64,000 nt of DNA from Patescibacteria group bacterium (GCA_041650515.1 JBAZLA010000002.1:167659-231658); one strand, 5' to 3'; numbered from the stretch's first letter, positions 5,199 through 58,904 are shown. Notes: a model not told the origin generated them from the sequence alone. Program-made: numbers and translations.

Positions 5199-6059
5199 TT
5201 ATTCTCTAATAACTTCCAAGTAGCGTCGCGCTACCGCAATACTAGTTGGGTTTTGTTTGATCGCTCCAACTAACCGCGAATCCAAACCTTGCTTCTTAAC
5301 TAAGGCTTCAATTTGCGGCGTTTGAGCCTCAACCTCAGCGTCAGTAGCGGCAGTAATCCTAGGCTCAACCTTAGATAGGCTATCACCCAAAAATAAAACG
5401 CCGATTTCTTCTTTAAAATCGGGAAATTTATCAGCAATCAGGCGACAAATCTCGGCGCATTGATCGCTGGCGGCAAAAGCTAAATTATATTCTTGATCAG
5501 ACTCTTTTACCCGATCTCGCGCTTCACCTAGTTCATAGTGTAAACCAGCACAGCGAGCCACATACTCAATCTGTTGCTCGGTTAGGCCACAATCTCGACG
5601 TAATAAACTTTGAATCTGGGGACGATGCAAAATAAAATCTTCCGATCGGCCTTCGTGCCCGCCATAATTTGGACGACCGCCTTTTTTCTTAAAATAACGT
5701 TTGAATTTACCTACGTCGTGCAGAGCCACCGCGATTGTCAACAACTCATCTTTACTTCGACCATCAATTTGCTGCGCCAACTTCTGATCAATCTGTGGAG
5801 CTACTCCCCACTGCTCTAAATATTGAGGAATCTCTTTTTGGTAAACTTCGAGAAATTTTTGAGTATGAGTAATAATTCCCCACTGATGCCAACGCGGCTC
5901 ATGCTCTTGGGGATCATCGGGATTTTTTTTAAAATTAATATTCTCCGGCCGATCATCAATAATCGCTCGGGCGATCTCTGGCAAATGGCCAACTATATCT
6001 TTAGCCGCCTGGTCACGAGTATCTGTAAGAGTATATTCTTGGCCGCTTTCACGCACCAT
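5199..6059 (-). CDS. HD-domain-like hypothetical protein (putative metal-dependent phosphohydrolase)
   Basis: The ORF continues to 6104, but that would overlap the topA stop. The internal Met (MVRESGQEY) at 6059 leaves a 4-nt gap after the topA stop. Contains an HD-like motif LHDVGK. No closer family assignment is possible by eye. Confidence 0.55.
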   Translation of the reverse strand: MVRESGQEYTLTDTRDQAAKDIVGHLPEIARAIIDDRPENINFKKNPDDPQEHEPRWHQWGIITHTQKFLEVYQKEIPQYLEQWGVAPQIDQKLAQQIDGRSKDELLTIAVALHDVGKFKRYFKKKGGRPNYGGHEGRSEDFILHRPQIQSLLRRDCGLTEQQIEYVARCAGLHYELGEARDRVKESDQEYNLAFAASDQCAEICRLIADKFPDFKEEIGVLFLGDSLSKVEPRITAATDAEVEAQTPQIEALVKKQGLDSRLVGAIKQNPTSIAVARRYLEVIRE

Positions 6060-6063
6060 ATTA

Positions 6064-8271
6064 TTACTTCTTATTAGTTGAGCACTCTTTATTACTACAG
6101 CCAACCTTACCCTGTTTTTGGTAAACCATCAAACTATTGCAAATCGAACATTTGGCGCCAGTTGGTTTAGTCCACACGGTAAATTTACAATCAGGGTAAC
6201 GGCTACAACCGTAAAAAGTGCCTCGCTTGCTCCGTCGCTCAATGATATCACCGCTGCCACATTCTGGACACTTAACTCCAGTGGGCTTCAATATCTGCTT
6301 AGTTGTTTTACACGCTGGATAATCGGAGCAAGCAATAAATTTACCAAACCGACCGGTCTTCATTATCATCGGCTTACCGCATTTGGGACATTGTTCATCA
6401 ATCACCTCAGCTGGCTCAGCCTGTCCCTCACCATTAATATTTTTGGTATTTTTACATTCGGGATAACCAGTACAGGCCAAAAATTTGCCAAACCGGCCGG
6501 TCTTGATAATCATCGGCTGACCACATTTTTCACAAACTTCATCAGTTTTTTCATTCACTAGCTCATCTTTGCTAACTTCCTCATATTTCTTTTCTAAATT
6601 TTGGCTAAATGGTTCATAAAACTTTTTAATCATCGGCTGCCATTCTAGCTCGCCTTCGGCAACACTATCTAGCTCTTCTTCTAGCTCAGCCGTAAAATCA
6701 TAATCAACCACCTGCGGAAAATGCTCCACCAATAGATCGCTGACCAAGAAGGCAATATCCGTGGGTTTAAGACGACGGCCATCACGCTCAACATAGTGTC
6801 GAGTGATAATGGTCGCGATAATTGGCGCGTAAGTTGATGGCCGGCCGATCCCCTTTTCTTCCAGGGCTTTAACTAAGGTCGCGTCGCTATAACGCGCTGG
6901 CGGCTGAGTAAAATGCTGTAATGGTTCTAATTTTAATAAATCCAAAACCTCGTCTTTTTGAACATCGGGCAAAATTACTTCTTCGCTGGACTGTGGATAA
7001 ATTTTCAAAAAACCGGCGAATTTAATTACCTGACCAGTGGCGCGGAAAATATAATTAGTCTTATCGTTTTTAACATCAACCGCCGTGTTAGCCAAAACCG
7101 CCCCGGCCATCTGGCTGGCAATCGTCCGCCGCCAAATTAAATCATACAGTCTATATTGTTGTGGACTTAAAAACTCTTTGATTTGCTCGGGCAGGTTGTT
7201 CGGATCAGTGGGGCGGATTGCTTCATGAGCCTCCTGGGCGCCCTTGCTATTATTCTTAAATCGCCGCGGTGAACCCAAACTAAACTCTTGGCCATACTGG
7301 CTTTTAATGAATTGACTAGCTTCATTTAAAAAACGATCGGCTAAAATTAAAGAATCCGTACGCATGTAAGTGATCAAACCAATTTGCCCTCGCGAACCCA
7401 GTTTAATACCTTCATAAAGCTGCTGAGCAATCATCATGGTTTGTTTGGCTGAGAAGCCCAAACGACGATTGGCTTCTTGCTGCAGGGTAGAAGTCCGAAA
7501 TGGCGGCAGCGGACTTTTTTGAGTTTCTTTTTTCTCTACCTCGGCCACTTGATAAACCGCGCTGATTAATTTATCCGTAATCAATTTAGCTTCTGTCTCA
7601 GACTTAATCGCCAGCTTATCCAAAACCTTGTCATCCACCTTATGCAGCTTAGCGCGAAATTGACCGTCACCTGTCTTTTGTAAATCAACCTCAACACTCC
7701 AGTATTCTTCCTTAATAAATTTATCAATCTCCCGCTCGCGTTCAACGATTAAACGAACCGCTACTGATTGCACCCGGCCGGCTGATAAACCACGCACCAC
7801 CTTTTTCCAAAGAAACGGTGACAATTTATAACCAACCAAACGGTCCAAGACTCGCCGAGCTTGTTGCGCATCAACTAAATGAGAATCAATCTGCCGCGGA
7901 TTTTTGAGCGCTTCGGCCACCGCCTCATTAGTAATTTCGTGAAAAGCAATCCGCGACTGCTTGTCTTCTGGTAATTTAAAAATCTGCGATAAATGCCAAG
8001 CAATCGCCTCGCCCTCGCGGTCCTCGTCAGTAGCGTAGTAGACTTTATCAGCCTTGGCGGCTTCTTTTTTAAGCGCCGTCAACCTTTTTTGGTTTGCCCG
8101 AAAAACAATATATTTGGGTGTAAAATTGTTATCAACATCCACCCCCAGCTGCGATTTGGGCAAATCACGAACGTGGCCATAAGATGAATCAACTTTAAAA
8201 TCACGACCCAAAAATTTACTAATGGTTTTGGCCTTAGTTGGTGATTCGACAATAACTAGATTCTTAGCCAT
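6064..8271 (-). CDS. topA: DNA topoisomerase I
   Basis: 735 aa. Toprim N-terminus MAKNLVIVESPTKAKTISKFLG with active-site region YMRTDS. C-terminal region has several C4 zinc ribbons (CEKCGQPM, CPKCGKPM, CPECGSG). Lies in the conserved dprA-topA neighbourhood. Confidence 0.93.
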   Translation of the reverse strand: MAKNLVIVESPTKAKTISKFLGRDFKVDSSYGHVRDLPKSQLGVDVDNNFTPKYIVFRANQKRLTALKKEAAKADKVYYATDEDREGEAIAWHLSQIFKLPEDKQSRIAFHEITNEAVAEALKNPRQIDSHLVDAQQARRVLDRLVGYKLSPFLWKKVVRGLSAGRVQSVAVRLIVEREREIDKFIKEEYWSVEVDLQKTGDGQFRAKLHKVDDKVLDKLAIKSETEAKLITDKLISAVYQVAEVEKKETQKSPLPPFRTSTLQQEANRRLGFSAKQTMMIAQQLYEGIKLGSRGQIGLITYMRTDSLILADRFLNEASQFIKSQYGQEFSLGSPRRFKNNSKGAQEAHEAIRPTDPNNLPEQIKEFLSPQQYRLYDLIWRRTIASQMAGAVLANTAVDVKNDKTNYIFRATGQVIKFAGFLKIYPQSSEEVILPDVQKDEVLDLLKLEPLQHFTQPPARYSDATLVKALEEKGIGRPSTYAPIIATIITRHYVERDGRRLKPTDIAFLVSDLLVEHFPQVVDYDFTAELEEELDSVAEGELEWQPMIKKFYEPFSQNLEKKYEEVSKDELVNEKTDEVCEKCGQPMIIKTGRFGKFLACTGYPECKNTKNINGEGQAEPAEVIDEQCPKCGKPMIMKTGRFGKFIACSDYPACKTTKQILKPTGVKCPECGSGDIIERRSKRGTFYGCSRYPDCKFTVWTKPTGAKCSICNSLMVYQKQGKVGCSNKECSTNKK

Positions 8272-10693: not shown

Positions 10694-10762
10694 AAATATA
10701 ATTTGTTCGCTGCAAGTTAATCAATATTTATTAATTCCAAAGCGCTAGACCTATAAACCCAA

Positions 10763-10932
10763 CGGGGGTTTGGGGGTGGGCTCGGCGCAGAATCCCGCCC
10801 CGACCTTGCTGACCCTAGCTAAGGGGCGGGACGGGTTAAACCGTAAGAAGATGAACAATGAATCGCGCCTCATGAGCCCCAGTCCGCCAGCTGGCGGATC
10901 TTTTGCTACTTTTTTGGCTTCAAAAAAGTAAA
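10763..10932 (+). repeat. ~160-nt structured intergenic repeat, copy A (diverged core)
   Basis: Begins GGGGGTTTGGGGG. Internal hairpin TCCCGCCCC...GGGGCGGGA. Ends CCCC-A-GT...CTACTTTTTTGGCTTCAAAAAAGTAAA. The 5' and 3' arms are complementary (a closing helix). Confidence 0.75.
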
Positions 10933-11078
10933 TAACTTTATGGTATAAACGTTCAGATCCCTCGACTCGGAGTTTACCCTGAGCGCAGCGAAGGGGTCGG
11001 GATGACAAATTGAATGGGCCTCGTGGAGTAGACGAAGATTGCTTCACCAGCTCACAATGACATATCAAATAATTAACT

Positions 11079-11114
11079 ACATGCTATGTACTGCGTACTA
11101 AGTACTAACATACA
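11079..11114. repeat. Single-arm GTACTNN heptad array fused to the dprA stop codon
   Basis: On the coding strand the dprA 3' end reads ...ATG TAT GTT AGT ACT TAG TACGCAG TACATAG. TAG plus the (TACNNAG) heptads is the same motif that follows the ppsA, O-antigen-ligase and FG-GAP-protein stops. Confidence 0.6.
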
Positions 11115-17211: not shown

Positions 17212-17321
17212 AAATTGTCCTCTCTTTCTTACTTTATTCTAGCATAATATTTTAATTTAGTTAAGCACGGATTAAACTTCCATTTTATCCTTTATAAAGC
17301 AATTGAGCAGATACAAAATAG

Positions 17322-17478
17322 TGGGGGTTTGGGGTTGGCACGGGGCAGAGCTGAGCTCCAACCGTTTCTGATTACGTCGAGGAGCGAGGCGGGTAAAACC
17401 GTAGGCAGACCAACAATACTTTACCCCTTGCCAACCCAAAAACTTTTTTGATTACTTTTTTGGTTACAAAAAAGTAAT
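17322..17478 (+). repeat. ~160-nt structured intergenic repeat, copy B
   Basis: GGGGGTTTGGGGTTGGCACGGGGC...TTCTGATTACGTCGAGGAGCGAGGCGGG...GCCCCTTGCCAACCCAAAAACTTTTTTGATTACTTTTTTGGTTACAAAAAAGTAAT. Confidence 0.8.
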
Positions 17479-17485
17479 CACATAC

Positions 17486-17513
17486 AAAAACCTCCGATTG
17501 CTCGGAGGTTTTT
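17486..17513. terminator. Bidirectional intrinsic terminator downstream of the 1238-aa surface protein gene
   Basis: aaaaa-cctccgattgctcggagg-ttttt. Confidence 0.7.
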
Positions 17514-17554
17514 GGGCAGTTTTGAAAAAGATGCTGCCAAACTCGATGAGACTA

Positions 17555-32697: not shown

Positions 32698-32781
32698 AGT
32701 ACTCAGTACATAGTACCTAGGAAGCCGCTAGTCTAGCGCTAATTAACTTCCTAAAGTACTGGGTACTATGTACTGGGTACT
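32692..32781. repeat. Heptad-periodic inverted-repeat hairpin element (GTACTNN arrays)
   Basis: Left arm gtacacagtactcagtacatagtacc. Right arm agtactgggtactatgtactgggtact. The arms are reverse-complementary. The inner loop taggaag...cttccta is itself palindromic. The element fills the whole gap between the stop of one minus-strand gene and the start of the next. Confidence 0.8.
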
Positions 32782-32783
32782 TT

Positions 32784-34793
32784 TTAAAATACACTCAAAC
32801 TGGTGGTTAAAATTTCTTTTTGGTTATCACCATTAATATCATTAACCATTACTTCGATCCCATCACGGTTACCGACGTCGAAAGCCAAAAAGGTGTTACC
32901 AAGCTGTTTACCTCGAGAATCATAAACTTTAACCTCGGGCTTACCACCATAGCCAGGTGCCGCTACAATCTCGGCTGCCCCGTCGCCATTAATATCCCCC
33001 ACCGCGACATTAACCCCGCCACGAAAATTAGCATCAAAAGCAAACCAGCCGGCCGATAGTAGTTTACCATCTTTATTAAAAATCCGAATCTGTGGCCCGC
33101 CGCCAACGCCAGCACCGGCGATAATCTCGCTGGTGCCATCGCCATTAAGATCGCCCACCGCGACATTAACCCCGCCACGGTAGTCAGAACCATAAGCGAA
33201 AAAGCCCGGATTAATCAATCTACCCTGAGCATTAAAAACTCGAATCTGCGGCCCGCCGCCTTTTTCTGTGCCAGTAATAATCTCAATCGTACCATCGCCA
33301 TTAAGATCGCCAAATGACAAATTAATCCCCTTATTATATTTCTCGCCATAAGGATAAAAAGTAGTTTCTAACGTGCCAGCCGAGTTATAAATAGCCACCG
33401 AGCGATCACCGGCGATCAAAGTCTCCAGTGAACCGTCAACATCAATATCGGTAGTCAGAATTTGGCTACTGCCGGGATATTGAGCTTTATAGGTAAAAAA
33501 CCCACCCCGCTGCCGCTGACCGGTATTATCAAAAATACGCACAAACGACCCGTTAACAAAAGTAGAGCCAATGATCTCGGCCAATGGCTTAAGCAGTAAA
33601 ATGCCATCATTAGAATTTAGCCTTAAATAATTGATAATCGAGCCATCGTTGGTCAATGGATCTTGGGTACCTTTAATTTTTTCCAGCTCTTCACGACCCA
33701 AGTTGACTGCCTGACGGTCGTTAGTTGAATTGACAAACACAACACCTTTCTCAAAATCCCGACGCCAAACGCCGCTACTAATTGTCGTACTATTATTATG
33801 TAAGACATCCTGCGGTCCAGAAGTTGGTTGGCCCAAAGCAACATCATACTCGTCAAACCACCAAGTTTGGCCATGGCTAGTATCACCAAAATCAAAACTA
33901 TACAGACCATTACCTAATAAAGTGCTAGTTAGACCAAAACGCATCTTCTGATAATCAGCCTGGTTACCGGTATTAGCGGTATTAGCATTAACAATATGCA
34001 AAATTGTGCCAGAATAAGCCGACGTCTTGAGATAGTTACTTTGATCATTCGACCAACTATACGGAAAATTTTCAAAAACAACGCCGTTAAGCCGGTTGCC
34101 AAAACAAGTTGTACCGTTACCAATAATTATTTTGTCTTTCCCAATCAGGTTGCGAGTCTGATCAATAATTACCGCCTCACCGTTGCGCCAGGCTGGATCC
34201 GCCACGCTAGCCGTATCCTGACTACAGTTATTGTCCAAATCATAATTACTAATAAAGTAGCTAATATTATCCCAAGTATTATCCAATAAAACACCGTCCC
34301 AAAGACCACTGCTCATGATTTTGGTATTGATAAATTTAGGCAAAAAAGTATTCCAGCGGTCACCGTTAACCAAAGGACAATAGTCGCTGATATTTAATAG
34401 CCAACTACCTGACCACCAGCTGATTTTGTTTCCTGCTGCGTCTTTGAGATACCAAGCTACCGGGATACTATCCGCTAATTGACGCGAGAGCAAATAACTC
34501 TCACTGGTCAAATTAACCTCTTTGATTTCCTGACTAGCTAAATAAGCTAAAATTTTTATTTGCGGATTTAATTGGCGCAGACGGCGAATCTTATCCGGAT
34601 TGCGCACCTGTTGATCCATATCCAAAACGACTAAATCCCATTTGGCTAAATTGGTAATATCCTGATCACTTAATTGCCAACTATAAAAAAGATTAGCCAA
34701 TTTGGGGTACTCCTCCATCTGGCCAAAATTTAGTGGATATAAAAAAGAGGTTAGAATTAAAATAGCAATAATTGTGGGGAAAATACGTTGCAT
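32784..34793 (-). CDS. Secreted protein with N-terminal glycoside-hydrolase-like TIM-barrel-type domain (tentative) and C-terminal FG-GAP/VCBS repeats
   Basis: 669 aa. Signal peptide MQRIFPTIIAILILTSFLYPLNFG. Repeated GDLNGDGTIEIITG, GDLNGDGTSEIIAGAG and GDINGDGAAEIVAAPG motifs are FG-GAP-like. The N-terminal domain call is low confidence. Confidence 0.6.
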   Translation of the reverse strand: MQRIFPTIIAILILTSFLYPLNFGQMEEYPKLANLFYSWQLSDQDITNLAKWDLVVLDMDQQVRNPDKIRRLRQLNPQIKILAYLASQEIKEVNLTSESYLLSRQLADSIPVAWYLKDAAGNKISWWSGSWLLNISDYCPLVNGDRWNTFLPKFINTKIMSSGLWDGVLLDNTWDNISYFISNYDLDNNCSQDTASVADPAWRNGEAVIIDQTRNLIGKDKIIIGNGTTCFGNRLNGVVFENFPYSWSNDQSNYLKTSAYSGTILHIVNANTANTGNQADYQKMRFGLTSTLLGNGLYSFDFGDTSHGQTWWFDEYDVALGQPTSGPQDVLHNNSTTISSGVWRRDFEKGVVFVNSTNDRQAVNLGREELEKIKGTQDPLTNDGSIINYLRLNSNDGILLLKPLAEIIGSTFVNGSFVRIFDNTGQRQRGGFFTYKAQYPGSSQILTTDIDVDGSLETLIAGDRSVAIYNSAGTLETTFYPYGEKYNKGINLSFGDLNGDGTIEIITGTEKGGGPQIRVFNAQGRLINPGFFAYGSDYRGGVNVAVGDLNGDGTSEIIAGAGVGGGPQIRIFNKDGKLLSAGWFAFDANFRGGVNVAVGDINGDGAAEIVAAPGYGGKPEVKVYDSRGKQLGNTFLAFDVGNRDGIEVMVNDINGDNQKEILTTSLSVF

Positions 34794-34996
34794 AGTGTTG
34801 TTACCTTTTTGAAGACAAAAAAGTAGCCAAAAAATCGCTGGGGCTCATAAGGCGCGACTCACTGTTCAACCTTAGTTCATCCTACCCATCCCGCTCCCAA
34901 GGAAAGATCAAAAAAGCCGGGACGGGACTACGCGCCATATTCGCCCCAGACCCCAATTATTTCTAAATGTTCAACGCGACTAAATAATTAAACTCG

Positions 34997-35155
34997 GCGG
35001 GGTTTGGGGTCGGCACGGGGCCGGAGCCGAGCTCCGACTCGTTCTGATTACGCCGAGGAGCGAGGCGAGTTAAACCTTCAGCGGGTAAACAACGCTTTGC
35101 CCCTTGCCGACCCCAAAACTTTTTTATGTTACTTTTTTAGTTATAAAAAAGTAAC
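34997..35155 (+). repeat. ~160-nt structured intergenic repeat, copy C
   Basis: GGGGTTTGGGGTCGGCACGGGGC...TTCTGATTACGCCGAGGAGCGAGGCGAG...GCCCCTTGCCGACCCCAAAACTTTTTTATGTTACTTTTTTAGTTATAAAAAAGTAAC. Compared with copy B, the T-to-C change in the 5' arm is compensated by A-to-G in the 3' arm. Confidence 0.8.
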
Positions 35156-35157
35156 AA

Positions 35158-37434: not shown

Positions 37435-37559
37435 AGTGCTTAATACATAGTACATAATACAATAGTAACAAATAACTAACTTCCCCGGTCAACTGCAACC
37501 TTGGAATTCACCGAATAATACTGGAATTAGTAGCTGCGTACTAGGTACTGTGTACTAGG
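37435..37559. repeat. Heptad-periodic inverted-repeat hairpin element (GTACTNN arrays)
   Basis: Left arm atacatagtacataatac. Right arm gcgtactaggtactgtgtactagg. The right arm contains the TAG stop (complement at 37555-37557) of the O-antigen-ligase gene. Confidence 0.65.
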
Positions 37560-38916
37560 TGCTATTTTTAACAAACTTCGTCGCGGCTAAAGCAACGCCT
37601 AACGGAAACCACATTTTGGAAACAAAATAAGACGTCTGAAAAAGCTGAAAAACCATAGCGCCAATAGCGACCACTAAACAAATCAAAACCACGCTCGACC
37701 ATGGGTCCTGTCTAGTCAAGGCAAATCGGTAAGCCCAGACAATCCGCCACAAAACAAAAACCAATAATAAAGTAAAGGTAAACAAACCCAGAACGCCCGA
37801 CTCAGCCAATAGTTTTTGGATCACTCCGTGCGACTCTTGAGTATCGCCAAACTCCAGCATAAAAATCGGATCACTGGCTACCAGCTCAGTAAAACTACCT
37901 GCGCCATTACCTAATAATGGATGTTTGTGCCACGACTGGATGGCAATCGTTGTCAGATACAATCGATGCCAATTAGAGCTCTGGGCAATATAGCTGGTCG
38001 AAAACAAATACATATAAATCAAAGCCGGCGAGAGACAAATAGCGATCAAGACTGTGTAAACCACAATCTTTTGCCACTGGCGCCAGTACTGGATTAGAAA
38101 TAAGATTAATAACTCCACAATCAAGGCAATCCAGCCTGTCCGCGAAAAAGTCGCTAAATTAATCAAAACCATTAATAAGACACCCAAAAATAACCAACGT
38201 TTTCTGTTGCCTTCTCTAGCCTGCCAAATCAAAATTACGCTAAACGGAATAGCGGCGATCAGCACCTCGGCAATCAGATTATGATTCCAGCCTAATGGCC
38301 GGATACCAAAGAGCGCTAACGGCACCGCCCGCCGAAAAAAGCCCTCAGCGCCGACACCAGCTATCAACGACCAGAGACCCATGATCGCCACACTAATACC
38401 CAAGAAATAAAAAATCTTAAAAATGTTTTTGAGGATTTTTTTGTCCTCAATCAGATTGTAAGGCAAGATAACAAACATCAGATAAAAAAATGACAACGGC
38501 CGCAGAATATATTTGATAGTCAAAAGATTGTCAGCCGCATTAATCAATGACAAACTAGAAGCAATAATAAACAAGACAAAATAAAATAAACCCGGGAAAT
38601 TGGCCCAAGATAGCTTTTGTTCACCTTTGAAATGGCGCACTAACGCCTTGATCGCCCAAGCGACAAAAACTACCATTGCTAAGACATCAACATAGGGCAC
38701 GTTTAAGTCTTTATAAATTATTTCCAGATAAGTCAGCGGGTACAAAAAAGTAATCAAATAAAGGCCCAGGGTGGTATAACGGTAAAAAAGGCCAATTGCC
38801 AAAACCAGAATTAGGACAAATAAAATATAGCTGGGTTTTATTATCACAGCTAAAACCGCCAAAATTACCAAAAAAATGGCTAGCAAATAAATTTGGGCCT
38901 GATTTTCTTTGTTCAT
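37555..38916 (-). CDS. O-antigen ligase / Wzy-like polytopic membrane protein
   Basis: 453 aa, roughly 10-12 predicted TM helices, and a large periplasmic loop with H/R-containing motif typical of the O-antigen ligase (Wzy_C) family. Sits in the glycosyltransferase cluster. Confidence 0.62.
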   Translation of the reverse strand: MNKENQAQIYLLAIFLVILAVLAVIIKPSYILFVLILVLAIGLFYRYTTLGLYLITFLYPLTYLEIIYKDLNVPYVDVLAMVVFVAWAIKALVRHFKGEQKLSWANFPGLFYFVLFIIASSLSLINAADNLLTIKYILRPLSFFYLMFVILPYNLIEDKKILKNIFKIFYFLGISVAIMGLWSLIAGVGAEGFFRRAVPLALFGIRPLGWNHNLIAEVLIAAIPFSVILIWQAREGNRKRWLFLGVLLMVLINLATFSRTGWIALIVELLILFLIQYWRQWQKIVVYTVLIAICLSPALIYMYLFSTSYIAQSSNWHRLYLTTIAIQSWHKHPLLGNGAGSFTELVASDPIFMLEFGDTQESHGVIQKLLAESGVLGLFTFTLLLVFVLWRIVWAYRFALTRQDPWSSVVLICLVVAIGAMVFQLFQTSYFVSKMWFPLGVALAATKFVKNST

Positions 38917-39007: not shown

Positions 39008-39505
39008 TCATCCACGATTATTCCGATCCTTACCCCAATTTTTGGGGTTATTTTTAATATATTGGTAAATTTTTTGATATTCCCATTGGTTACGGATAAC
39101 CCGGTCATGGAACGACCGTTGCCATTGAAAATGGAAATCACGGGAACGAATTTGTTTGGTCACAACATTTTTAAATGAATTAACAATTTTCGATAACAAA
39201 CCATATCGCATTGTAGGGACAGGGCATTGCCCTGTCCCTACGGGATCATCAATCATAATTATTCCGTGTAAATGGTTGGGCATAACGACAAAAATATCAA
39301 TTTGAATATTTAAATAATGTTGGGGTATTTGTTGCCAACATTTTTTGGCGATTTTACCATATTCATTCAATACCATTTTCCCGTTGATAACATCGCCAAA
39401 AACCATTTCCTTATTGTGGGTGCAAATGGTAATGAAATATTGGCCAATTTGGGAATAATCATATCCTAACCAACGGTTTAATTTGCGTTCACGGTATTCA
39501 ACCAT
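39008..39505 (-). CDS. tnpA: IS200/IS605-family Y1 (HUH) transposase, REP-associated tyrosine transposase-like
   Basis: 165 aa. HUH motif MPNHLHGII. C-terminal catalytic Tyr region QWQRSFHDRVIRNQWEYQKIYQYIKNNPKNW matches the Y1_Tnp/RAYT pattern (WQ..YHD..IR....Y.YI..NP). No tnpB partner. A perfect 29-nt palindrome lies inside the CDS at 39213-39241. Confidence 0.8.
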   Translation of the reverse strand: MVEYRERKLNRWLGYDYSQIGQYFITICTHNKEMVFGDVINGKMVLNEYGKIAKKCWQQIPQHYLNIQIDIFVVMPNHLHGIIMIDDPVGTGQCPVPTMRYGLLSKIVNSFKNVVTKQIRSRDFHFQWQRSFHDRVIRNQWEYQKIYQYIKNNPKNWGKDRNNRG

Positions 39506-39639: not shown

Positions 39640-41280
39640 TCAGGGCGCGTAGTTGGCCCGGACCATGTACTCCTCGGTCCACGCCGGGTTGGAGTAGTAG
39701 TCCTCCAGCCAAGCGTCGGAACATTCATCAAGCGGGAGCACGGTGGGCGGCGTGGTGCAGGACGACGCGTAGTACTCACCCAGACCGGCGGGGCTGGCCT
39801 TCCAACGGAGTTGGCTCCACTGTCCCAAATGGACGACGGTGAAGACTCCATTGATGTCCAACCCGCAGTCTTGGCAGTTGCAGATGAGCTGCGCCGCGAA
39901 GGGGTGCTCGTCGGTGCCGTTGCAGCGGTCACCCGGCGGGGTGCCCGACTCGGTCACCGCCACCAGGAATTCCACCGTCGCGCTGGCCGCGCCGCACGTG
40001 TCGATGAAGTACAGCCGCAGAACGTGAAAGCCGACGGTCAAAGAAGCGGTGCCGTAGTGGTACTCGTAGGGTCCTTCGCCCTGCGACCACGAGGAACAGA
40101 CAACCGTCGGGGGTAACAACGACGGCACATAGGCGCTGCCGTCCACGGCGAACTGCACCCGGCCGCGCTCGGTGACGCTGCTCAGGTTGCAGTCGGCGTC
40201 CAGGTAGTTGACCACAATGTCCAGGTTCGCGCCCTGGGCAAAAATGATCGGGTCGCTGGCCGGCACGCCGTCGACCAAAACCTGGTTGAGCCCGATGATC
40301 GGCGCCGTGTTGTCCTGGCACTCGGTGCTGATGGTGGTACATGAGTCGTTGCCCTCGTCGCACTGTTGCGTCAAGGGGTTGCACTCGTCCGGGCCGACGT
40401 TGACGCACTGGCCAACCTGGCACTCGTCCAAACCGTCGCACCAGTAGCCGTTGTTGCAGGCGCTGCCGTTGATCTTGTCGGTCCAGCCCGTGGGGTTGAG
40501 CCCGGGCTGGCACTCTTCGCACTGATTCAGGGGGTTGTCGTCCCCGGTCTGGTAGACGTACCCGCTGATCGTGCACTCGGTGGGCACAGGGATCAGATCG
40601 CATTCGTCGTTGCTTTCGTCACACACCTCGGTGATCGGATCGCACTCGTCGGGACCCACGTTGGCGCAGACGCCGGCCTGGCACTCGTCCAAACCGTCGC
40701 ACCAGTAACCGTTGTCACAAACCGCACCGTTGGGACGGACGGTCCAGCCCGTGGGGTTGAGCCCGGGCTGACATTCTTCGCAGGGATTCGCGGGGTTGAT
40801 GGCGCCGCTCTCGTAGTGATAGCCGTTGATGATGCATTCGTTGTCGTCGTCATCGTCGTCATCGTCACCCAACGGATCGCATTCATCCGCGGACTCGTTG
40901 CAAACCTCCGTGAGGGGGCTGCACTCGTCCGGCCCGACGTTCACGCAGTCGCCGGCCTGGCACTCGTCCGGGCCGTCACACCAATAGCCGTTGCTGCAAA
41001 CCGCACCGTTGGGACGGACGGTCCAGCCCGTGGAGTCGAGCCCGGGCTGACATTCTTCACAGGAATTCGCGGGGTTGATGGCGCCGCTCTCGTAGTGATA
41101 GCCGTTGATGATGCATTCGTTGTCGTCGTCATCATCCAGGGAGATGTCATCATCGGTGTCGCCACCGTTGTCGTCGTCATCGCCGCCGCCGTACTCGCAG
41201 GCGACAACGAAGCCGACAATCAGGAAAAAGAACAAGGCGACCAACAGTCCGTTGGTCAGGGGGGTTCTCGTCGTCTTCAT
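39640..41280 (-). CDS. Secreted Cys-rich lipoprotein with three tandem ~90-aa Cys-rich modules and poly-Asp linkers (GC-rich island)
   Basis: The ORF is tracked to 41307, but the RBS 'ggagg' lies 7 nt before the ATG at 41280 (MKTTRTPLTNGLLVALFFFLIVGFVVAC = signal plus lipobox). Repeats: NECIINGYHYESGAINPAN.CEECQPGL..TGWTVRPNGAVC.NGYWCDG.DECQAG.C.NVGPDEC. Poly-D runs DDDDNGGDTDDD and DDDDDDDD. The region is much more GC-rich than the rest of the window. Confidence 0.6.
   Translation of the reverse strand: MKTTRTPLTNGLLVALFFFLIVGFVVACEYGGGDDDDNGGDTDDDISLDDDDDNECIINGYHYESGAINPANSCEECQPGLDSTGWTVRPNGAVCSNGYWCDGPDECQAGDCVNVGPDECSPLTEVCNESADECDPLGDDDDDDDDNECIINGYHYESGAINPANPCEECQPGLNPTGWTVRPNGAVCDNGYWCDGLDECQAGVCANVGPDECDPITEVCDESNDECDLIPVPTECTISGYVYQTGDDNPLNQCEECQPGLNPTGWTDKINGSACNNGYWCDGLDECQVGQCVNVGPDECNPLTQQCDEGNDSCTTISTECQDNTAPIIGLNQVLVDGVPASDPIIFAQGANLDIVVNYLDADCNLSSVTERGRVQFAVDGSAYVPSLLPPTVVCSSWSQGEGPYEYHYGTASLTVGFHVLRLYFIDTCGAASATVEFLVAVTESGTPPGDRCNGTDEHPFAAQLICNCQDCGLDINGVFTVVHLGQWSQLRWKASPAGLGEYYASSCTTPPTVLPLDECSDAWLEDYYSNPAWTEEYMVRANYAP
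40300..41130. repeat. Tandem ~280-bp DNA repeats (3 copies; the two at higher coordinates are near-identical) inside the Cys-rich lipoprotein gene
   Basis: Blocks such as cgcggggttgatggcgccgctctcgtagtgatagccgttgatgatgcattcgttgtcgtcgtcatc occur at 40791 and 41071. accgttgggacggacggtccagcccgtgg occurs at 40726 and 41006. The period is 280 bp. Confidence 0.8.
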
Positions 41281-41337
41281 TTCGAAACCTCCGTTTGCAG
41301 AAGACATTACTCACTTCGTTTCTGTCGCTTCGGTGTT

Positions 41338-42888
41338 TTACCAGGAAATTACGATTCGTCCCGCGCCACCGAAATAGCGGGATTCATCGGTTACCAGGGG
41401 GTTATCAAAGTCGGGCGACCATTGTCGCCAGCCAAAGGCCGGTCCGAGCATCAGCCGAATCGGGTGTTGCCCGAAGAGCCAGTACTCATAACCGATACCC
41501 AGGCTGACAAATTGGTCAAGACCATACGGTCCGCCCTGACTGCCCAGACTCTCCGAGATGGCGTTGCCGCTCACCTCAAAGGCCAGATAGTGGGACGGGG
41601 TAATGGCCCAGGCCGCGCCAAGATGGCCGCTCCCAATGAGGGAGTTGTGATAGCCATACCCGACGTAGCCACCGACCCGAAGCACGTTGGGTTGTCCGGC
41701 GATGGTGAAATCGCCCTCAACCTCGAGAACGCCGAAACCGCTTGCGTGTTGCGCATTCGCGGTAACGACACCTCCAGCACCAACGTGCAGAAATTTCGGC
41801 CAAGACACAGTAACCGGAACAGGAACAAGAACAGGAACTTTTCCCGAGGGACGTTGCGTCCGCTCGGCTGCGAGTCGCTGACCCGATTCTGCCGTGTTAA
41901 GGGCAGCTTGGGCCCGGGCTCGCAGATCCGCAAAGTCATCCCCGGTGTAGATCCGGAGGAAGGCTTGGCCTCGGTCTTGAACCTTGGCCCAGTCTTTTGA
42001 CTTTACTGCGGCTTCAATCTCTTCGACCTCCTCTTCCGCCAGTTGGCGGTTGACTTGCCCCACCATCTCAGGCAGGGTGCCCCTGGTGATCACCAGGGCG
42101 GTGACCGCCGTAGGCGGAGTGAGGTCAGGCGGGGTAGTGGTGGGTTCTTCTGTCTCAGACGGCAGATTAGGCTCAGCCTGCGCCAAGACCCTTTCCGACC
42201 ACCGAGACGTCTCTGGCTCTGGGGCGTTAGTCACCCGGTAGCGCTCACCTGGCGGCGGCGCCGACACGGTGTACTCCCGATAGCCCCCTTGGCCGTAGAC
42301 AAGTTGGAACTCATCATTAAGCCAGTGAACTGCCGGGGTTGTACTAACGTCCCAGATCTCCACCCAAACTTCTTCTTCCAGCACATCGCTGCCCAAGGTG
42401 AGCATAATGGCCTCACCCTTGTACGGATATTCGGTCCACTGACCGTCCACCAGTACGCGGGCAATGATCCGACCGTCACGTGGTGTCTCCTTAAACCGCA
42501 GCTCTAACCGGTCGGAATTGGGCGGCGGGGTAAAGGTTCTGATGCACGGGCCGGCATCAATCGGTATTTCCGGCCCGTCATATCCGGCAGATTGCACCCG
42601 GATGGCCTCAGCCACGCCCAAATACCCGTAGAGCGTGACCTCCGCGACTTCGGTTACCGGTTTAGCCAGGATATGATGCCAGACCTGGTACTTGTACGTA
42701 CCGGCCGTGACTGTCGCTTTCCAGGGATGGTTGCTGTCAAATGGATGGCTCTCGGGATCCCTATTTCCCGGTCGCCACAACCTCAGCTCATACACGCCGT
42801 CAGGGCAGATTGCGCTGGTGGCGCATTGAATCCCGATCACGGGCGGTTTGAGTTTCGGTGGTGAACCGCGAGCAACCGCTTCCTCCAC
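41338..42888 (-). CDS. Putative outer-membrane beta-barrel-like protein (GC-rich island); start uncertain
   Basis: 516 aa as tracked, but the start is actually GTG-encoded. An in-frame upstream extension encodes KTKGKFLIAVFLLLIFGSV (signal peptide) with an AGGAGG RBS near 42945, so the true start is probably non-canonical and upstream. The C-terminal ~180 aa are rich in alternating G/Y/aromatic beta-strand residues and end in ...GRIVISW (OMP-like C-terminus). Confidence 0.5.
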   Translation of the reverse strand: MEEAVARGSPPKLKPPVIGIQCATSAICPDGVYELRLWRPGNRDPESHPFDSNHPWKATVTAGTYKYQVWHHILAKPVTEVAEVTLYGYLGVAEAIRVQSAGYDGPEIPIDAGPCIRTFTPPPNSDRLELRFKETPRDGRIIARVLVDGQWTEYPYKGEAIMLTLGSDVLEEEVWVEIWDVSTTPAVHWLNDEFQLVYGQGGYREYTVSAPPPGERYRVTNAPEPETSRWSERVLAQAEPNLPSETEEPTTTPPDLTPPTAVTALVITRGTLPEMVGQVNRQLAEEEVEEIEAAVKSKDWAKVQDRGQAFLRIYTGDDFADLRARAQAALNTAESGQRLAAERTQRPSGKVPVLVPVPVTVSWPKFLHVGAGGVVTANAQHASGFGVLEVEGDFTIAGQPNVLRVGGYVGYGYHNSLIGSGHLGAAWAITPSHYLAFEVSGNAISESLGSQGGPYGLDQFVSLGIGYEYWLFGQHPIRLMLGPAFGWRQWSPDFDNPLVTDESRYFGGAGRIVISW

Positions 42889-42958
42889 TGACCCGAAGAT
42901 CAGCAGGAGGAAGACGGCTATCAGGAACTTTCCTTTGGTCTTCGTGACTTCCTCCTTT

Positions 42959-44014
42959 CTAGAAGCGGTAACCGACCCGGAACATCACCCCGTAGGGGAT
43001 GGTGACGCGCGTAACGTCTTCCTGGGCCGGGCTCTTGGACTCGAACTGGAGTCCGCAGTTGGGGCCAACACCCCAGATCAGCCGATCGTCGAAGTGACGG
43101 CCAACCAGGCCGGCGTTAAGGATCGGAAACCCCCAGCGATCGGTATGGTTGCCGTGCTCGACTTGGAACCACCGCGAGGTGATCCCAGCTTCGAAACCGG
43201 CCCAGCTCTCGCCGAAAATACGGTACCCGCCACCGACCTCGGTGTCGAGACCCGCATGTTGGTTGGGGCCCAACCCGCCGTGGAAGAAGAACTCGTGCCT
43301 TCCCCACAGCAGGTCAAACCCGCCTTCGGCGATGAAGTAGGAGTAATTGCCGTTGCTGTCCATGTAGGTTTGGTAACCCGCGTACAGCAGAGCGCTCACC
43401 CCGTCGCCGCCGCTCGCACCCGCAGCACCCGGTCTGGCGGTCGGCATGAAGATCCGCGAGATGATGCCTTGCGGGCTATCCCGGTTCTCCACCCGAACTT
43501 CTTCATCCGGATCAACCGGTTCGATCTCAACGTCCGCAATCCCGCGGCCACGCTCACCCGGAGCGCCAGCCGCACCGCTGGTCGGCGGTTTGCGAACATA
43601 AATCCGAACCACCCGGTTTTTGTTGCGGAAGTTCCCGTCGGCATCGCACAAAGTTTGTGCCTCGGGGAGACCAGCCTCAATCTCAACTCGCTTTACCTCA
43701 GTTGCCCGCAGGTGAGCGAGTTGGCCGTTGCCGGTGAAGCCGCTGGTTTCGCCGTGGTAATCGGCGTAACCAGTAAACTTCACTTCCCAGCCCGGGTAGT
43801 CGGACCTAATCTTGGCGGCGACCGCCTTCAGCTTATCCATCTGTGCCTGACGCACATTGGACGGAAAAGCTTCCGGCAATCGCCACTCGTTGATCGTAAA
43901 ATCGGCGGTGGCGTGGATCAGGATCCACCCATCGCCGGCCTCTGCCGTTTTGGCACTTGCCAGGATGGCGAGCGCCACGATGGACAATGCCACCGCCAAC
44001 AGGATTCTTCGCAC
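42959..44014 (-). CDS. OmpA/MotB-like peptidoglycan-binding domain protein with C-terminal beta-barrel-like region (GC-rich island)
   Basis: 351 aa. Signal peptide MRRILLAVALSIVALAILASAKTAEA. OmpA_C-like motif FTGYADYHGETSGFTGNGQLAHLRATEV...NRVVRIYV. The C-terminus ...MFRVGYRF ends in Phe like diderm outer-membrane proteins. Confidence 0.6.
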   Translation of the reverse strand: MRRILLAVALSIVALAILASAKTAEAGDGWILIHATADFTINEWRLPEAFPSNVRQAQMDKLKAVAAKIRSDYPGWEVKFTGYADYHGETSGFTGNGQLAHLRATEVKRVEIEAGLPEAQTLCDADGNFRNKNRVVRIYVRKPPTSGAAGAPGERGRGIADVEIEPVDPDEEVRVENRDSPQGIISRIFMPTARPGAAGASGGDGVSALLYAGYQTYMDSNGNYSYFIAEGGFDLLWGRHEFFFHGGLGPNQHAGLDTEVGGGYRIFGESWAGFEAGITSRWFQVEHGNHTDRWGFPILNAGLVGRHFDDRLIWGVGPNCGLQFESKSPAQEDVTRVTIPYGVMFRVGYRF

Positions 44015-49013: not shown

Positions 49014-50062
49014 TTAATTTTCTTCCAGCCGTTCAAAAAAATCAGCCGTAATCACCATCAGAGCCGTCGCTACCGGAATAGCTAATAAAATCCCGATCAA
49101 ACCACCAATCTTAGCGCCAATCATTAGGGCAATGATTGTCACTACTGGATTAAGCCCAACGGCCCGCCGCATAACCTGGGGCACCAGAATATTATTTTCT
49201 AACCACTGCATCACAACATAAAAAATCAAAACAAACAAAGCTAACGACGGTGAAACGGTAAAAGCGACAAAAATCGCCGGGATAGCCGAAAGAATCGGCC
49301 CCAAATATGGAATAAACTCACCCAAAAAAGCGATCAAAGCTAAGACCAAAGCAAACTGACGCATAGTTGGATCAATAAAACCAAACCCGTTCATGCCAAT
49401 AAAAACTAAACAGCCAACAATTAATGACAGAACCACCTGTCCTCGCAGCCAGAGACCGATTTTATCTTTAACCTTGTAGATCAACTGAGTCAAATAAGGC
49501 TGATATTTAGCCGGCGCCACCAGCCGCAGGATTCTTTTAACCGCATTTTCTTCGACAATAATATAAAAAGTAATAACCAAAATGACACAAAAAGAAATTA
49601 CCCCGCCAAAAATGCTAATCACAGTTGATAATACACTCTGACCGCTGTTTTCTAAAGTTAGCTGCAACGATTTTAAGCTCTGCTGAATACTGTCGCCTAA
49701 TCCATGCTGACGAGAATAGTATTAATATTAGATAAACTAGTATCAATCTTCTGCCAATAAGCCGGAAAATTGGAAGAAAACTTCTGAATCTGGTTAGAAA
49801 CTAACGGCACAAATAAAATAATAACTAAACTGATCAAAACGATCAGCGTTAGATAAATCGTCAAAACGCTGACCCAAGCCGGTATCCGATGGCGCCGAAG
49901 CCAGCTAACCAGCGGATCAATAGCCGAAACAAAGATTAAAGCCACAAATAAAATAATCAAAATCCCTTTGATCAAATACAAAAACCATAATAACAAAATT
50001 ACGGCCACGATTTTAAAAATCGAAGAAGTGGAAAGCTCAATTTTGACCTTTTGGTCCGGCAT
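49014..50062 (-). pseudogene. AI-2E family (UPF0118/PerM-like) transporter, interrupted by a frameshift
   Basis: The N-terminal 121-aa ORF (49697-50062) and the C-terminal 217-aa ORF (49014-49667, PYLGPILSAIPAIFVAF motif) together make one ~345-aa AI-2E transporter. The downstream reading frame stays open across the junction (RQHGLGDSIQQSLKSLQLTLENS) but in a different frame from the upstream ORF. That means a single frameshift, or a sequencing error. Confidence 0.55.
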
Positions 50063-51839: not shown

Positions 51840-51938
51840 AGTACACAGTGCAGAGTACTATAGTACACAGTAACTTATAACCCAGCGACGACAGATTTTA
51901 GATTTCTATGGACTATGTACTAGGTACTGTGTACTATT
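51840..51938. repeat. Heptad-periodic inverted-repeat hairpin element (AGTACNN/GTACTNN arrays)
   Basis: Left arm agtacacagtgcagagtactatagtacacagta. Right arm ctatgtactaggtactgtgtactat. Lies between the GC-rich islet terminator and smpB. Confidence 0.7.
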
Positions 51939-51950
51939 TCTTGGTATAAT

Positions 51951-52424
51951 ATGATTACTTCTATGCCCATTCTTGCTGACAATAAAAAAGCCCTTTTTGA
52001 CTACCAAGTCGTTAAAACTTGGGAAGCGGGTTTGATTTTGACTGGCCAGGAGGTCAAATCTGTTCGCAATAAACAGCTTAGCCTTAAAGAATCTTACGTG
52101 GTTATTAACTTAACCGCTAACCGGTCGCCTCAAGCTTATCTGCTCAACTGCCATATCTCGCCCTACAAAATGGCCGGCCACTTAACTGGCTATGATCCGA
52201 CTCGCACTCGCCGCCTCTTATTACACCAAAAAGAGATCAATTCGCTTTATGGCCAAGCGCAGCAAGCTGGCTTGACATTAATCCCCTTACGAGTGTATAC
52301 TAAGGGAACTAAAATTAAAGTTGAAATTGGCTTAGTTAAAGGAAAAAAACAGTTTGATAAGCGAACGGCCATCAAAAAACGTGAGGTCGACCGCGAACTC
52401 CGCCGTAAATTGAAAAATATCTAG
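51951..52424 (+). CDS. smpB: SsrA-binding protein SmpB
   Basis: 157 aa. DYQVVKTWEAGLILTGQEVKSVR and the C-terminal basic tail (KREVDRELRRKLK) match SmpB. tmRNA lies directly downstream. Confidence 0.9.
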   Translation: MITSMPILADNKKALFDYQVVKTWEAGLILTGQEVKSVRNKQLSLKESYVVINLTANRSPQAYLLNCHISPYKMAGHLTGYDPTRTRRLLLHQKEINSLYGQAQQAGLTLIPLRVYTKGTKIKVEIGLVKGKKQFDKRTAIKKREVDRELRRKLKNI

Positions 52425-52543
52425 TTCTTTATGTGGACCTGTCCCCCTGTTTCGGCGCATCTTAAATTGATAGAACCACAAAGTGAGGCGCCAGCCGCTC
52501 CCACTCCTAAGGTTTTTAAAATGCTTAAGGTGAATGGAAATGG

Positions 52544-52941
52544 GGGGATGACGGGTTTCGCTAGGAAGATTATTGATTAAACTAGGCAAGTCGAGCTAGT
52601 ACTCTCGTAAAACAGGCTAAAAAATATAAGTGCCAACTTATACAACAAAGCCAAACAAGCAGTAGCTTCGCTATTTGCTGTTCCGGCCTTTGCTCCAGTC
52701 GTCGCCTAATTGCGTACGACTCATCGGTCCCTGATGTCTAATAGGGGTTTTACCGGTGTTATACCTTAGACTAGATAAACCGGACGGTCTGGGGCCGTTT
52801 ATCAAAAATTACCAGACTAGGTAAGCTCGGGTTTTGTCCGTTTTCCACTTAGCTGACCGAACCAAACCAAATGTGACTACGCTTGTAGAGCTAGCTTATT
52901 CAACTTTCTAGACGTGGGTTCAACTCCCACCATCTCCACCA
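52544..52941 (+). ncRNA. ssrA: tmRNA (ssrA)
   Basis: 5' end GGGGAUGACGGGUUUCG pairs with the 3' acceptor strand CAUCUCC-A-CCA. tRNA-like T-arm GGGTTCAACTCCCACC. CCA is encoded. Directly downstream of smpB. A candidate tag ORF ends ...AFAPVVA-TAA, but the frame is not verified. Confidence 0.85.
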
Positions 52942-56013: not shown

Positions 56014-56089
56014 GGGTCCGTGGTGTAGTGGTTAACATGCCTCCCTGTCACGGAGGAGATCGCCGGTTCGAATCCGGTCGGGCCCGCCA
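56014..56089 (+). tRNA. tRNA-Asp (anticodon GTC)
   Basis: Cloverleaf is readable by eye. Acceptor GGGTCCG/CGGGCCC. Anticodon stem CCTCC/GGAGG with loop cTGTCAc. T-arm CCGGTTCGAATCCGG. 3' CCA is encoded. Confidence 0.9.
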
Positions 56090-57560: not shown

Positions 57561-57586
57561 AAGTACACTAAAAAATATAAACCCAG

Positions 57587-57746
57587 CGGGGGCTTGGGGG
57601 CAAGCTAGGCGCTAAGTCCCGCCCCGGCCTTTTCTGATTACGCCGAGAGGCGGGACGGATAAGGCAAACCGTTGACTAACAATGAATTGCGCCTAGCTTG
57701 CCCCCAAAACTTTTTTTGATTACTTTTTTAGTTATAAAAAAGTAAT
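57587..57746 (+). repeat. ~160-nt structured intergenic repeat, copy D
   Basis: GGGGGCTTGGGGGCAAGCTAGGCGC...GTCCCGCCCCGGCCTTTTCTGATTACGCCGAGAGGCGGGAC...GCGCCTAGCTTGCCCCCAAAACTTTTTTTGATTACTTTTTTAGTTATAAAAAAGTAAT. Perfect 17-bp closing helix. Confidence 0.85.
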
Positions 57747-57832
57747 TTTAGATAAAAAAAGTCCCCCGCCGAGTACACCACCAAAGCGCCGAAGCACTAT
57801 GGAGTGACTAGACAGGGGCAGGGACAAAGTCC

Positions 57833-58483: not shown

Positions 58484-58545
58484 TTTTTATAATTACTGTC
58501 AAGCATAAATTCAAAACCACTTTCTAAAAATCTAAGAAAATAAAC

Positions 58546-58705
58546 CCGGTTGGGGTCTGGGGAGAATACGGCGCAAAGTCCCGCCCCAACCTTTTCTGAT
58601 TACGCCGAGGGGCGGGACGGGTAGAACGATAAAAAGTTGAACAATGAATCGCGCCTTATGAGCCCCAGAGCTTTTTTGTTACTTTTTTGGCTTCAAAAAA
58701 GTAAA
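58546..58705 (+). repeat. ~160-nt structured intergenic repeat, copy E
   Basis: TTGGGGTCTGGGGAGAATACGGCGC...GTCCCGCCCCAACCTTTTCTGATTACGCCGAGGGGCGGGAC...TTGAACAATGAATCGCGCCTTATGAGCCCCAGAGCTTTTTTGTTACTTTTTTGGCTTCAAAAAAGTAAA. Shares the TTGAACAATGAATCGCGCCT(C/T)ATGAGCCCCAG block with copy A. Confidence 0.85.
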
Positions 58706-58904
58706 GAGGCTTCGTAGATGGGAAAGAGATCCTTCGCTTCGCTCCTGACACATGGGTCAGGAGCTACACTCAGGATGACGAATTAAAAAATTCTCAATGA
58801 CAACAAAAAACGGCCCCCTCGGACCGTTATTTTGAAATCTTGCTTTTTTTCTTGTCCTTCGGCTCCGCTCAGGACAGGCTTTATTGCTTTTTCAATTCTA
58901 TAAA

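Follow-up and report, generated by a model that had tools for sequence, protein, structure and literature searches.

The window analyzed here is a 64-kb stretch (64,000 nucleotides) of a genome from the Patescibacteria (CPR), whose genomes are among the smallest and most streamlined of all bacteria and whose non-coding DNA is little known. The genome is a MAG, and its DprA matches at 100% a protein listed by NCBI under 'Patescibacteria group bacterium'. Six copies of a structured element lie between its genes, five on the plus strand (A to E) and one on the minus strand (F). The genes that neighbor the copies are unrelated to one another and mostly have housekeeping roles (PGA_cap, DprA, TPR, GT4, GHL15, DsbA-like and PpsA). 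The copies take up 975 of the 6362 intergenic bases, corresponding to ~15% of the intergenic space and 1.5% of the window. The positions are given below, with the scores of a covariance model that we built from the six window copies.

10750..10934, plus strand: copy A, module 1 (142 bits)
10882-10899, plus strand: extra GC hairpin of copy A, between the closing helix and the AT hairpin
10956..11006, plus strand: module 2 hairpin of copy A (GATCCCTCG...GGGATGAC; 0.00 expected by chance), which makes A a long form
17308..17480, plus strand: copy B (160 bits)
34798..34970, minus strand: copy F (156 bits), with E as its nearest kin
34983..35157, plus strand: copy C, whose AT hairpin adjoins the GT4 stop codon (35158)
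57574..57748, plus strand: copy D, the reference for the anatomy (fold and covariance model)
58536..58707, plus strand: copy E, module 1 (175 bits)
58728..58779, plus strand: module 2 hairpin of copy E (motif match)

A sequence-only reading of the window had reported five copies, all in the same orientation. We located all five (A to E) by direct reading, on the plus strand and at the coordinates where they had been placed, and the model scores across the six window copies range from 142 to 175 bits. Reading of positions 34760-35010 added copy F (34798-34957 without the outer box), a full copy on the minus strand whose 5' end is head-to-head with that of C at a distance of ~40 nt. The claim of a uniform orientation thus holds for five of the six copies. 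When the 64-kb window was scanned with the covariance model, nothing beyond the six copies was found except weak reverse-strand echoes at the same sites.

Further signals agree with this inventory. The AT-hairpin motif that ends the element occurs seven times in the window, against 0.16 expected by chance. A repeat finder picks up the five plus-strand copies (as families D2-D6), and a MAFFT alignment of these five has a mean column identity of 71%. Across all six window copies, pairwise identity is 53-81% (mean 65%). An independent ENA assembly is 100% identical to the window over 29008-49505, and since this span includes F and C, the repeats are not assembly artefacts. The organism was assembled from SRR8542065 and ERZ27247363. 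Logan short-read contigs terminate within copies A and C, as happens at repeats.

Other features of the window include a separate short repeat family made of tandem NNGTACT heptads, three to four at each site (11077-11107, 32759-32789, 37534-37564, 51906-51936 and 58898-58928). The heptads straddle or directly follow stop codons (DprA, GHL15, Wzy and PpsA), and one more set lies between a CDF gene and SmpB. SmpB is directly followed by the tmRNA (144 bits; the two together lie in 51951-52941), and a tRNA-Asp (GTC) lies at 56014-56089. An AI-2E family transporter is split into two ORFs 30 nt apart (49014-49667 and 49697-50062) and may be a pseudogene or a frameshift. A 301-aa ORF between UvrB and TopA (5199-6104) has a weak Cas3_HD / HD-domain match (E = 9e-5); no CRISPR array was seen.

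Anatomy of the element

On the sense strand, all copies begin with an A-rich stretch and a TATAAA(C)CC-like box ending in ACCC, followed by GGGGNNTGGGG. The GGGG-NNT-GGGG sequence, present in the copies (as GGGG(N)NTGGGG) much as the sequence-only reading had described it, precedes the long closing helix P1. The middle of P1 varies among copies, and a GGCGC...GCGCC segment is invariant in most of them. P1 encloses P2, a 10-bp hairpin with a conserved loop of ~20 nt, and then a single-stranded stretch of ~35 nt that carries an invariant AACAA. The 3' strand of P1 ends in CCCC and is followed by a 5-nt linker, which pairs with the NNT linker, and by T6-7. The 3' terminus is a 12-13-bp A/T hairpin (NTACTTTTTT, a tetraloop, AAAAAAGTAN') flanked by YTAC...GTAR. 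The body of the element is no simple doublet, and the P1 arms are inverted repeats. Copy D, on the plus strand, has the following parts.

57574-57586: A-rich/ACCC box
57588-57592: first G-tract
57596-57612 paired with 57689-57705: P1
57616-57625 paired with 57647-57656: P2, with the loop at 57626-57646
57657-57688: single-stranded AACAA region
57711-57717: T-run
57720-57745: AT hairpin

The T-run begins 5-6 nt past the CCCC in 15 of the 18 family members (loci outside the window carry L numbers). In copy A and in L016:4330, it is replaced by a small GC hairpin (TCCGCC...GGCGGA). The extra GC hairpin of copy A (GTCCGCCAGCTGGCGGAT) is followed by CTTTT and was called terminator-like by our scan. 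The ending of CCCC, T-run and AT hairpin that had been ascribed to every copy is present, except that copy A has no T-run directly past the closing helix. Including the paired linker, the helix ends at the C just before T6-7; the terminator scan was limited to loops of ≤ 8 nt and cannot score this arrangement.

Copies occur in a short form of ~175 nt and a long form of ~250 nt. The long form carries module 2, a second hairpin that follows the AT hairpin on the 3' side after ~24 nt and is present in A, E, L023, L022, L026:534 and L016:4330. Its motif is GATYCYTCG...RGRATGAC, and within the window it never occurs without module 1. The stem of module 2 covaries (ATCCT/AGGAT, ATCCC/GGGAT and ATTCC/GGAAT) and its interior is variable.

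Relatives in other genomes and metagenomes

We searched genomes and metagenomes with a pattern that demands an exact match at both ends, so that more diverged relatives would escape it. The pattern found one true relative in the GTDB species representatives, in a Candidatus Magasanikbacteria MAG (L003), and eleven in the JGI metagenomes. Eight of the eleven JGI relatives share the architecture described above (type 1). They lie on four Ga0265297 contigs from a different organism, three of them within 11.7 kb. The genes that flank them have no counterpart in the window, and homologous copies are non-syntenic between the organisms. Subfamilies are common to the two organisms, and copy E and the other organism's copy at L023 are 87% identical. 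The only pair as close as 96% lies on a single 61-kb Ga0265297 contig.

The three remaining JGI relatives and L003 constitute type 2, which is thus found in Magasanikbacteria and in two other samples. Type 2 shares only the ends of the element, i.e., a GGGGTCTGGGG start and a CCCCAG-N3-T6-GG-ATAC...GTAT end. Its interior is unrelated to that of type 1 and is almost fully paired. Conserved ends bracket a GC-rich body that has a common fold in every copy, whose sequence is variable and which, as type 2 shows, is wholly replaceable.

The element does not belong to a described RNA family or repeat family that we could find. Rfam 15 at gathering thresholds returned only the tmRNA and the tRNA-Asp for the window, and in permissive scans of B and of D-E nothing came up but unspecific matches resembling terminators or AT hairpins, with scores far under the threshold. 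A known RNA family is rejected on these grounds, in agreement with the sequence-only reading, which had named a novel ncRNA as a candidate. Viral, phage and plasmid collections contained no match to the element, and in text searches of the literature we found no such repeats described for CPR/Patescibacteria.

We also scanned ~37 kb from relatives of PpsA (85% and 77% protein identity) and DprA (60% and 57%). The model matched nothing there; the loci are, however, too short or too far removed to count as empty sites. The contig of the 85% PpsA relative stops ~120 nt past PpsA, in sequence weakly like module 2. For the DsbA-like protein, no sampled relatives were found. In the relative with 77% PpsA identity, PpsA is followed by a hairpin (L034, 3700-3790; CCACCTTCGTCCCG...CGGGACTTCGGTGGAC) that is like the type-2 interior and lacks the type-2 ends, a hint that repeat families exchange modules.

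Conservation of the fold

Copy D folds at -70.7 kcal/mol (z = -6.7) and contains the perfect 17-bp helix that the sequence-only reading had attributed to it. The two P2 subfamilies that it had distinguished are also present. So is the compensatory change between B and C (T>C in one arm, A>G in the other), although the 3' arm of B reads ACCCCTTGCCAACC, contrary to the GCCCC... that had been given.

To assess covariation, we aligned 13 type-1 copies with MAFFT, independently of any model fit, and folded the alignment with RNAalifold. This recovers P1, P2 and the AT hairpin, with 95.6% of cells paired. Changes on both sides affect 14 of the 35 pairs, compared with 1-2 in controls with slid 3' partners, and the shuffle control for two-sided changes gave 1 of 500. 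The covariation score reaches 0.32, whereas the slid controls give 0.05-0.09. A 20-sequence model-fitted alignment gives the same picture. In the AT hairpin, covariation affects both the outer pair at the foot (T-A, C-G and A-T) and the top pair (G-C and A-T). Compensatory changes back all three helices, and the earlier proposal of a structured family is upheld.

The kind of pairing was used to ask which strand is under selection. The paired cells comprise 605 Watson-Crick pairs, 10 G-U and 16 A-C, and the wobble pairs have no bias to either strand. Folded from P1 to P1, the core has no strand preference: in 9 of 18 copies, the greater stability belongs to the sense strand. For the full-length element, the sense strand is more stable in 14 of 18 copies, because the first G-tract pairs by wobble with the C + U-run. 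This G-tract is invariant, and only as sense-strand RNA does it pair in this way. We conclude that the fold is real, and that the helices are silent on the strand and on whether RNA or DNA is under selection.

Genomic context and orientation

Outside the window, the copies have neighbors such as RecR, L21, SodA, MurC, AsnRS and Hsp20. A gene's terminator lies on one side of a copy, and the promoter of the following gene on the other. Copy B, for instance, is flanked by the canonical terminator (17490-17515) of a 1238-aa gene and by the TPR promoter. Canonical terminators of neighboring genes adjoin B, E, L026:3276, L015, L023 and others.

The orientation of the copies is biased. Between same-direction genes, 9 of 10 copies are antisense to the genes (binomial p = 0.02). 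In 13 of 17 copies, a convergent gene has its 3' end on the side of the AT hairpin; the distance from the stop codon to the start of this hairpin is 0-7 nt at C, L020 and L003. Copy F is the exception, being oriented in the sense of the gene that follows it, GHL15/FG-GAP, whose ATG is 4 nt away from the end of the AT hairpin. The 3' arm of this hairpin (34796-34827) has an A>G substitution that makes AAGG, which could serve as a ribosome-binding site. Copies D and E bracket, in direct orientation, a membrane-like ORF of 216 aa (57833-58483; 58% GC; no family match), an arrangement that looks like a cassette or a composite.

RNA-level readings of the element

Each copy may be an independent sRNA gene of ~125-135 nt, transcribed on the sense strand from the GGGG to the T-run, whose P2 loop and AACAA region would bind a protein or a target. 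We consider this reading unlikely. Several observations speak for it. The intrinsic-terminator look that the sequence-only reading had noted on the plus strand, a helix followed by a T-run, does lie on the sense strand; a terminator-like helix with U6 is present in 15 of 18 copies, with a putative small terminator as its substitute in A. A TATAAA-like box lies 6-7 nt before the first G in many copies. The pairing of the G-tract with the C + U-run exists only as sense RNA and goes with the greater stability of the full-length sense strand. Diverged copies remain nearly perfectly paired while their single-stranded segments are conserved, the subfamilies occur in two organisms, and a placement antisense to neighboring genes is usual for intergenic sRNA genes. 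However, no plus-strand (sigma-70-like) promoter was called upstream of the five plus-strand window copies, and no conserved -35 was found upstream of the copies. The TATAAA-like box lacks the -7 T, the last base of a -10 hexamer, that is present in the genome's own predicted promoters, and conservation stops ~14-25 nt upstream of the GGGG, even for copies that are 87-96% identical. G-U pairs are no more frequent than A-C mismatches and the core has no strand preference. Moreover, the AT hairpin and module 2 are conserved and covary beyond the would-be 3' end, and homologous copies are not syntenic between organisms. The proposal of a self-contained sRNA gene is weakened by the lack of a called promoter, the abrupt upstream end of conservation and the absence of wobble bias.

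The functional molecule may instead be the antisense (gene-sense) RNA. The element would then act in a 3' UTR or between cistrons, as protection against exonucleases or as a processing or termination site, like E. coli REP/BIME. The position of the AT-hairpin end, facing the 3' end of a convergent gene in most copies and close behind the stop codon in C, L020 and L003, is as this reading would have it, and such a transcript would extend over the full element with its AT hairpin and module 2. On the gene-sense strand, the small ACCC...GGGT hairpin and its U-rich stretch were called terminator-like in D and E, and a recurrent GCTTG linker variant forms a G-U wobble only on that strand. However, the genes upstream of B, E, L026:3276 and L015 have a strong terminator of their own before the element, so that it would seldom be transcribed from there. 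In A, L022 and L003, little or no U-rich stretch follows the 5' hairpin. Wobble pairs as a whole do not favor the gene-sense strand, and three copies (F, L019 and L009) precede genes in the other orientation. We find this reading somewhat harder to credit than an sRNA gene.

Three further RNA or coding candidates were discarded. A riboswitch or 5' leader is rejected, the neighbors being unrelated in function and most copies antisense to them. A 26-codon ORF in copy A ends in the AT hairpin, and on reading, its frame is lost in E and stopped in D. Hammerhead-like CUGA..GAAA cores were considered; on inspection, neither the motif of the loop nor that of module 2 conforms to them, and Rfam is silent.

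A RAYT-like transposase gene and tests of mobility

The sequence-only reading had pointed to a RAYT-type gene in the window. The gene is there, and scores under the curated cut-off of its family.

39008..39505, minus strand: RAYT-like / IS200-like Y1 (HUH) transposase gene, 165 aa, with HLH and YQYIKNNP motifs

The 165-aa ORF matches NCBIfam REP_Tyr_transpos with E = 1.3e-14 and 54 bits, below the curated cut-off of 80. It has the HUH motif (HLH) and a Y-x3-NP motif. In a permissive pass, it has a weak match to Pfam Y1_Tnp (E = 0.004); at E ≤ 1e-5, Pfam detected no transposase among the window ORFs. Apart from this Y1-type gene, we found no transposase in the ~50 ORFs of the window or beside the copies elsewhere, and no homologue of the gene in 227 kb of other loci. 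The window contains no tnpB. No copy of the element flanks the RAYT-like gene, the nearest being 3.8 kb away, and its flanks hold no related palindrome. We regard the RAYT-like Y1 enzyme as a candidate trans-acting partner of the element.

The gene itself contains a perfect 29-nt palindrome (GTAGGGACAGGGCA T TGCCCTGTCCCTAC; 39213-39241), in frame. It contributes ~10 residues, VGTGQCPVPT, to the stretch that separates the HUH motif from the Tyr motif, and is GC-rich in a gene of 36% GC. Kinship of this palindrome to the P1 arm of copy B was rejected, the similarity being at chance level. The gene lies at the edge of an island (39640-44014) that looks foreign. The island has 61% GC, compared with 45% for the window, contains large ORFs without Pfam match and carries tandem repeats of 262-279 nt at 40335-41136.

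The sequence-only reading had named a REPIN or a MITE as alternatives. Two defining tests went against a REPIN, as the RAYT-like gene is not flanked by the element and the copies are only 53-81% identical. Nor does the element behave like a classical MITE, i.e., a deletion derivative of an IS with a DDE transposase, moved via its terminal inverted repeats (TIRs) and leaving target-site duplications (TSDs). We consider this reading largely refuted and highly improbable. The copies are interspersed, numerous and confined to intergenic DNA, two on one contig are 96% identical, and the P1 arms resemble long inverted repeats. In addition, an 8-bp direct repeat (ATACAAAA) flanks copy B. However, the termini of the element are unrelated to each other (ACCC/GGGGNNTGGGG G-tract box versus T-run + AT hairpin) and form no inverted repeats, and the P1 arms vary with compensatory changes, which a double-stranded binding site for a transposase would not need. 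To evaluate direct repeats, we looked for the longest word shared by the two flanks of 17 copies; p < 0.05 was obtained for B (8 bp) and L016b alone, and the offsets are inconsistent. A TATAAAC repeat at copy A was rejected as a target-site duplication, being homologous to the spacer of other long-form copies. The only transposase found in the window ORFs or beside the copies is of the Y1 type.

We also looked for hallmarks of other mobile elements. No cleavage tetranucleotide is conserved at the left flank, where there is only an A-rich, TAAA-like preference, and no full-length IS with the ends of the element was seen. An integron attC site is rejected, since on reading the ends have no R''/R' cores (RYYYAAC / GTTRRRY), there is no cassette array, with housekeeping genes separating the copies, and no integrase Pfam match was obtained.

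Proposed reading: a hairpin-forming repeat with a built-in terminator

The element is most likely a REP- or MITE-like repeat, selfish or domesticated. More specifically, the reading we favor, tentatively and as a composite of several parts, is that of a lineage-specific, interspersed, hairpin-forming intergenic repeat of Patescibacteria that bears a one-way terminator or insulator and is copied through single-stranded DNA. The presence of six copies in 64 kb, among unrelated housekeeping genes, argues for this reading. So do the covariation with Watson-Crick-only pairs, the sharing of ends by type 2, the T-run or its substitute hairpin, the orientation bias and the RAYT-like gene. The Ga0265297 type-1 copies in unrelated contexts (with their 87% and 96% identities), the adjoining canonical terminators and the breaks in Logan contigs are further points in its favor.

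With regard to copying, changes within pairs are almost all from Watson-Crick to Watson-Crick without wobble strand bias, from which we infer that copying or maintenance of the element involves a hairpin of single-stranded nucleic acid, most likely DNA. The diverged RAYT-like Y1 transposase would be the obvious candidate for the copying enzyme. Conserved ends around a replaceable body are the pattern expected if such an enzyme recognizes the ends, and a Y1/HUH enzyme acting on single-stranded DNA would fit the Watson-Crick-only compensation, the asymmetric ends and the absence of TIRs and TSDs.

With regard to transcription, the extended closing helix running into the T-run on the sense strand has, judged from its sequence, the form of an intrinsic terminator. 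This terminator appears to be kept even in the two copies that lost the helix/T-run arrangement, by means of the substitute GC hairpin. Between same-direction genes, tolerance is therefore probably confined almost entirely to the non-stopping orientation, which would be a simple cause of the orientation bias. A copy in antisense orientation would block antisense or divergent transcripts from entering the upstream gene, and would thus be a one-way insulator.

Several observations count against the favored reading. Copy F is sense-oriented 4 nt before an ATG, where a fully efficient terminator would silence the gene. Our searches turned up neither empty sites nor target-site duplications nor an autonomous partner (the nearest sampled relatives have 57-85% protein identity), and the RAYT-like gene is unflanked by the element and below the NCBIfam cut-off. 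Identities of 53-81% together with near-perfect pairing are explained by recent spread no better than by selection acting on every copy over the long term, the expectation for functional RNAs. If the element were nothing but a structural hairpin of DNA, the conservation of the AACAA region and of the P2 loop would be unexplained. Finally, the first G-tract pairs with the C + U-run in sense RNA alone, and in 14 of 18 copies the greater stability belongs to the full-length sense strand.

A bolder version of these ideas seems doubtful to us. Here the copies would be a new class of multi-copy structured RNA of ~130 nt (GGGG at the 5' end, a U-run at the 3' end and a swappable body), amounting to ~1.5% of the genome on window density. 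Or they would be terminator cassettes spread by a domesticated Y1 transposase that insulate tightly packed genes from antisense transcription.

The element is shared between distant lineages, with conserved ends, a swappable interior and a fold kept by compensatory change. It may be selfish and persistent, in genomes from which such DNA is believed to have been purged, and may then be linked to a diverged RAYT transposase; alternatively, it may be a recruited transcription insulator or RNA. In practical terms, the element breaks short-read assemblies of these genomes, and the covariance model built from its copies would let others annotate it.

Comparison with known systems

The element is comparable in kind to REP/BIME/REPIN, ERIC, BOX and Correia repeats, and is unrelated to any of them in sequence and architecture. 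REP/BIME/REPIN sequences of E. coli and Pseudomonas are likewise GC-rich extragenic palindromes located just past genes, with a hairpin kept by compensatory change and without terminal inverted repeats or target-site duplications, and this genome, too, has a RAYT-like gene. REP/BIME elements act as transcript-end structures and partial terminators. Whereas REP sequences comprise 20-40 nt, or a REP doublet, the element has ~160-250 nt, three distinct hairpins and a non-palindromic core. It lacks a fixed GTAG-type tetranucleotide, and the foot of its AT hairpin covaries. Unlike REPINs, it does not flank the RAYT-like gene, and its window copies do not cluster closely around one master sequence.

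BOX (Streptococcus pneumoniae), ERIC/IRU (enterobacteria) and Correia/NEMIS (Neisseria) are intergenic repeats of 100-250 nt with stable folds, optional modules and transcript-end effects that make up ~1-2% of the genome. The element resembles them in size, in fold, in its optional module 2 and in its share of the window (1.5%). However, it has no sequence similarity to them and, unlike Correia, has no TIRs or TA duplication. A strong gene-orientation bias, a putative built-in T-run terminator and the Patescibacteria host further set it apart.

The PATEs of the IS200/IS605 group also have asymmetric ends, each with its own hairpin, and lack TIRs and TSDs. They depend on a Y1 transposase that acts on single-stranded DNA, with an expected strand or orientation bias; for the element, this enzyme is a candidate. 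In contrast to PATEs, the element has no full-length IS with the same ends, no definable cleavage tetranucleotide at the left flank and no tnpB in the window.

Lastly, the element differs from intrinsic terminators and terminator-bearing sRNA genes in being a branched structure of 110 nt without a conserved promoter, in which the AT hairpin, and sometimes module 2, lies past the U-run. It shares with them a GC-rich helix that, on the sense strand, leads straight into 6-7 U.
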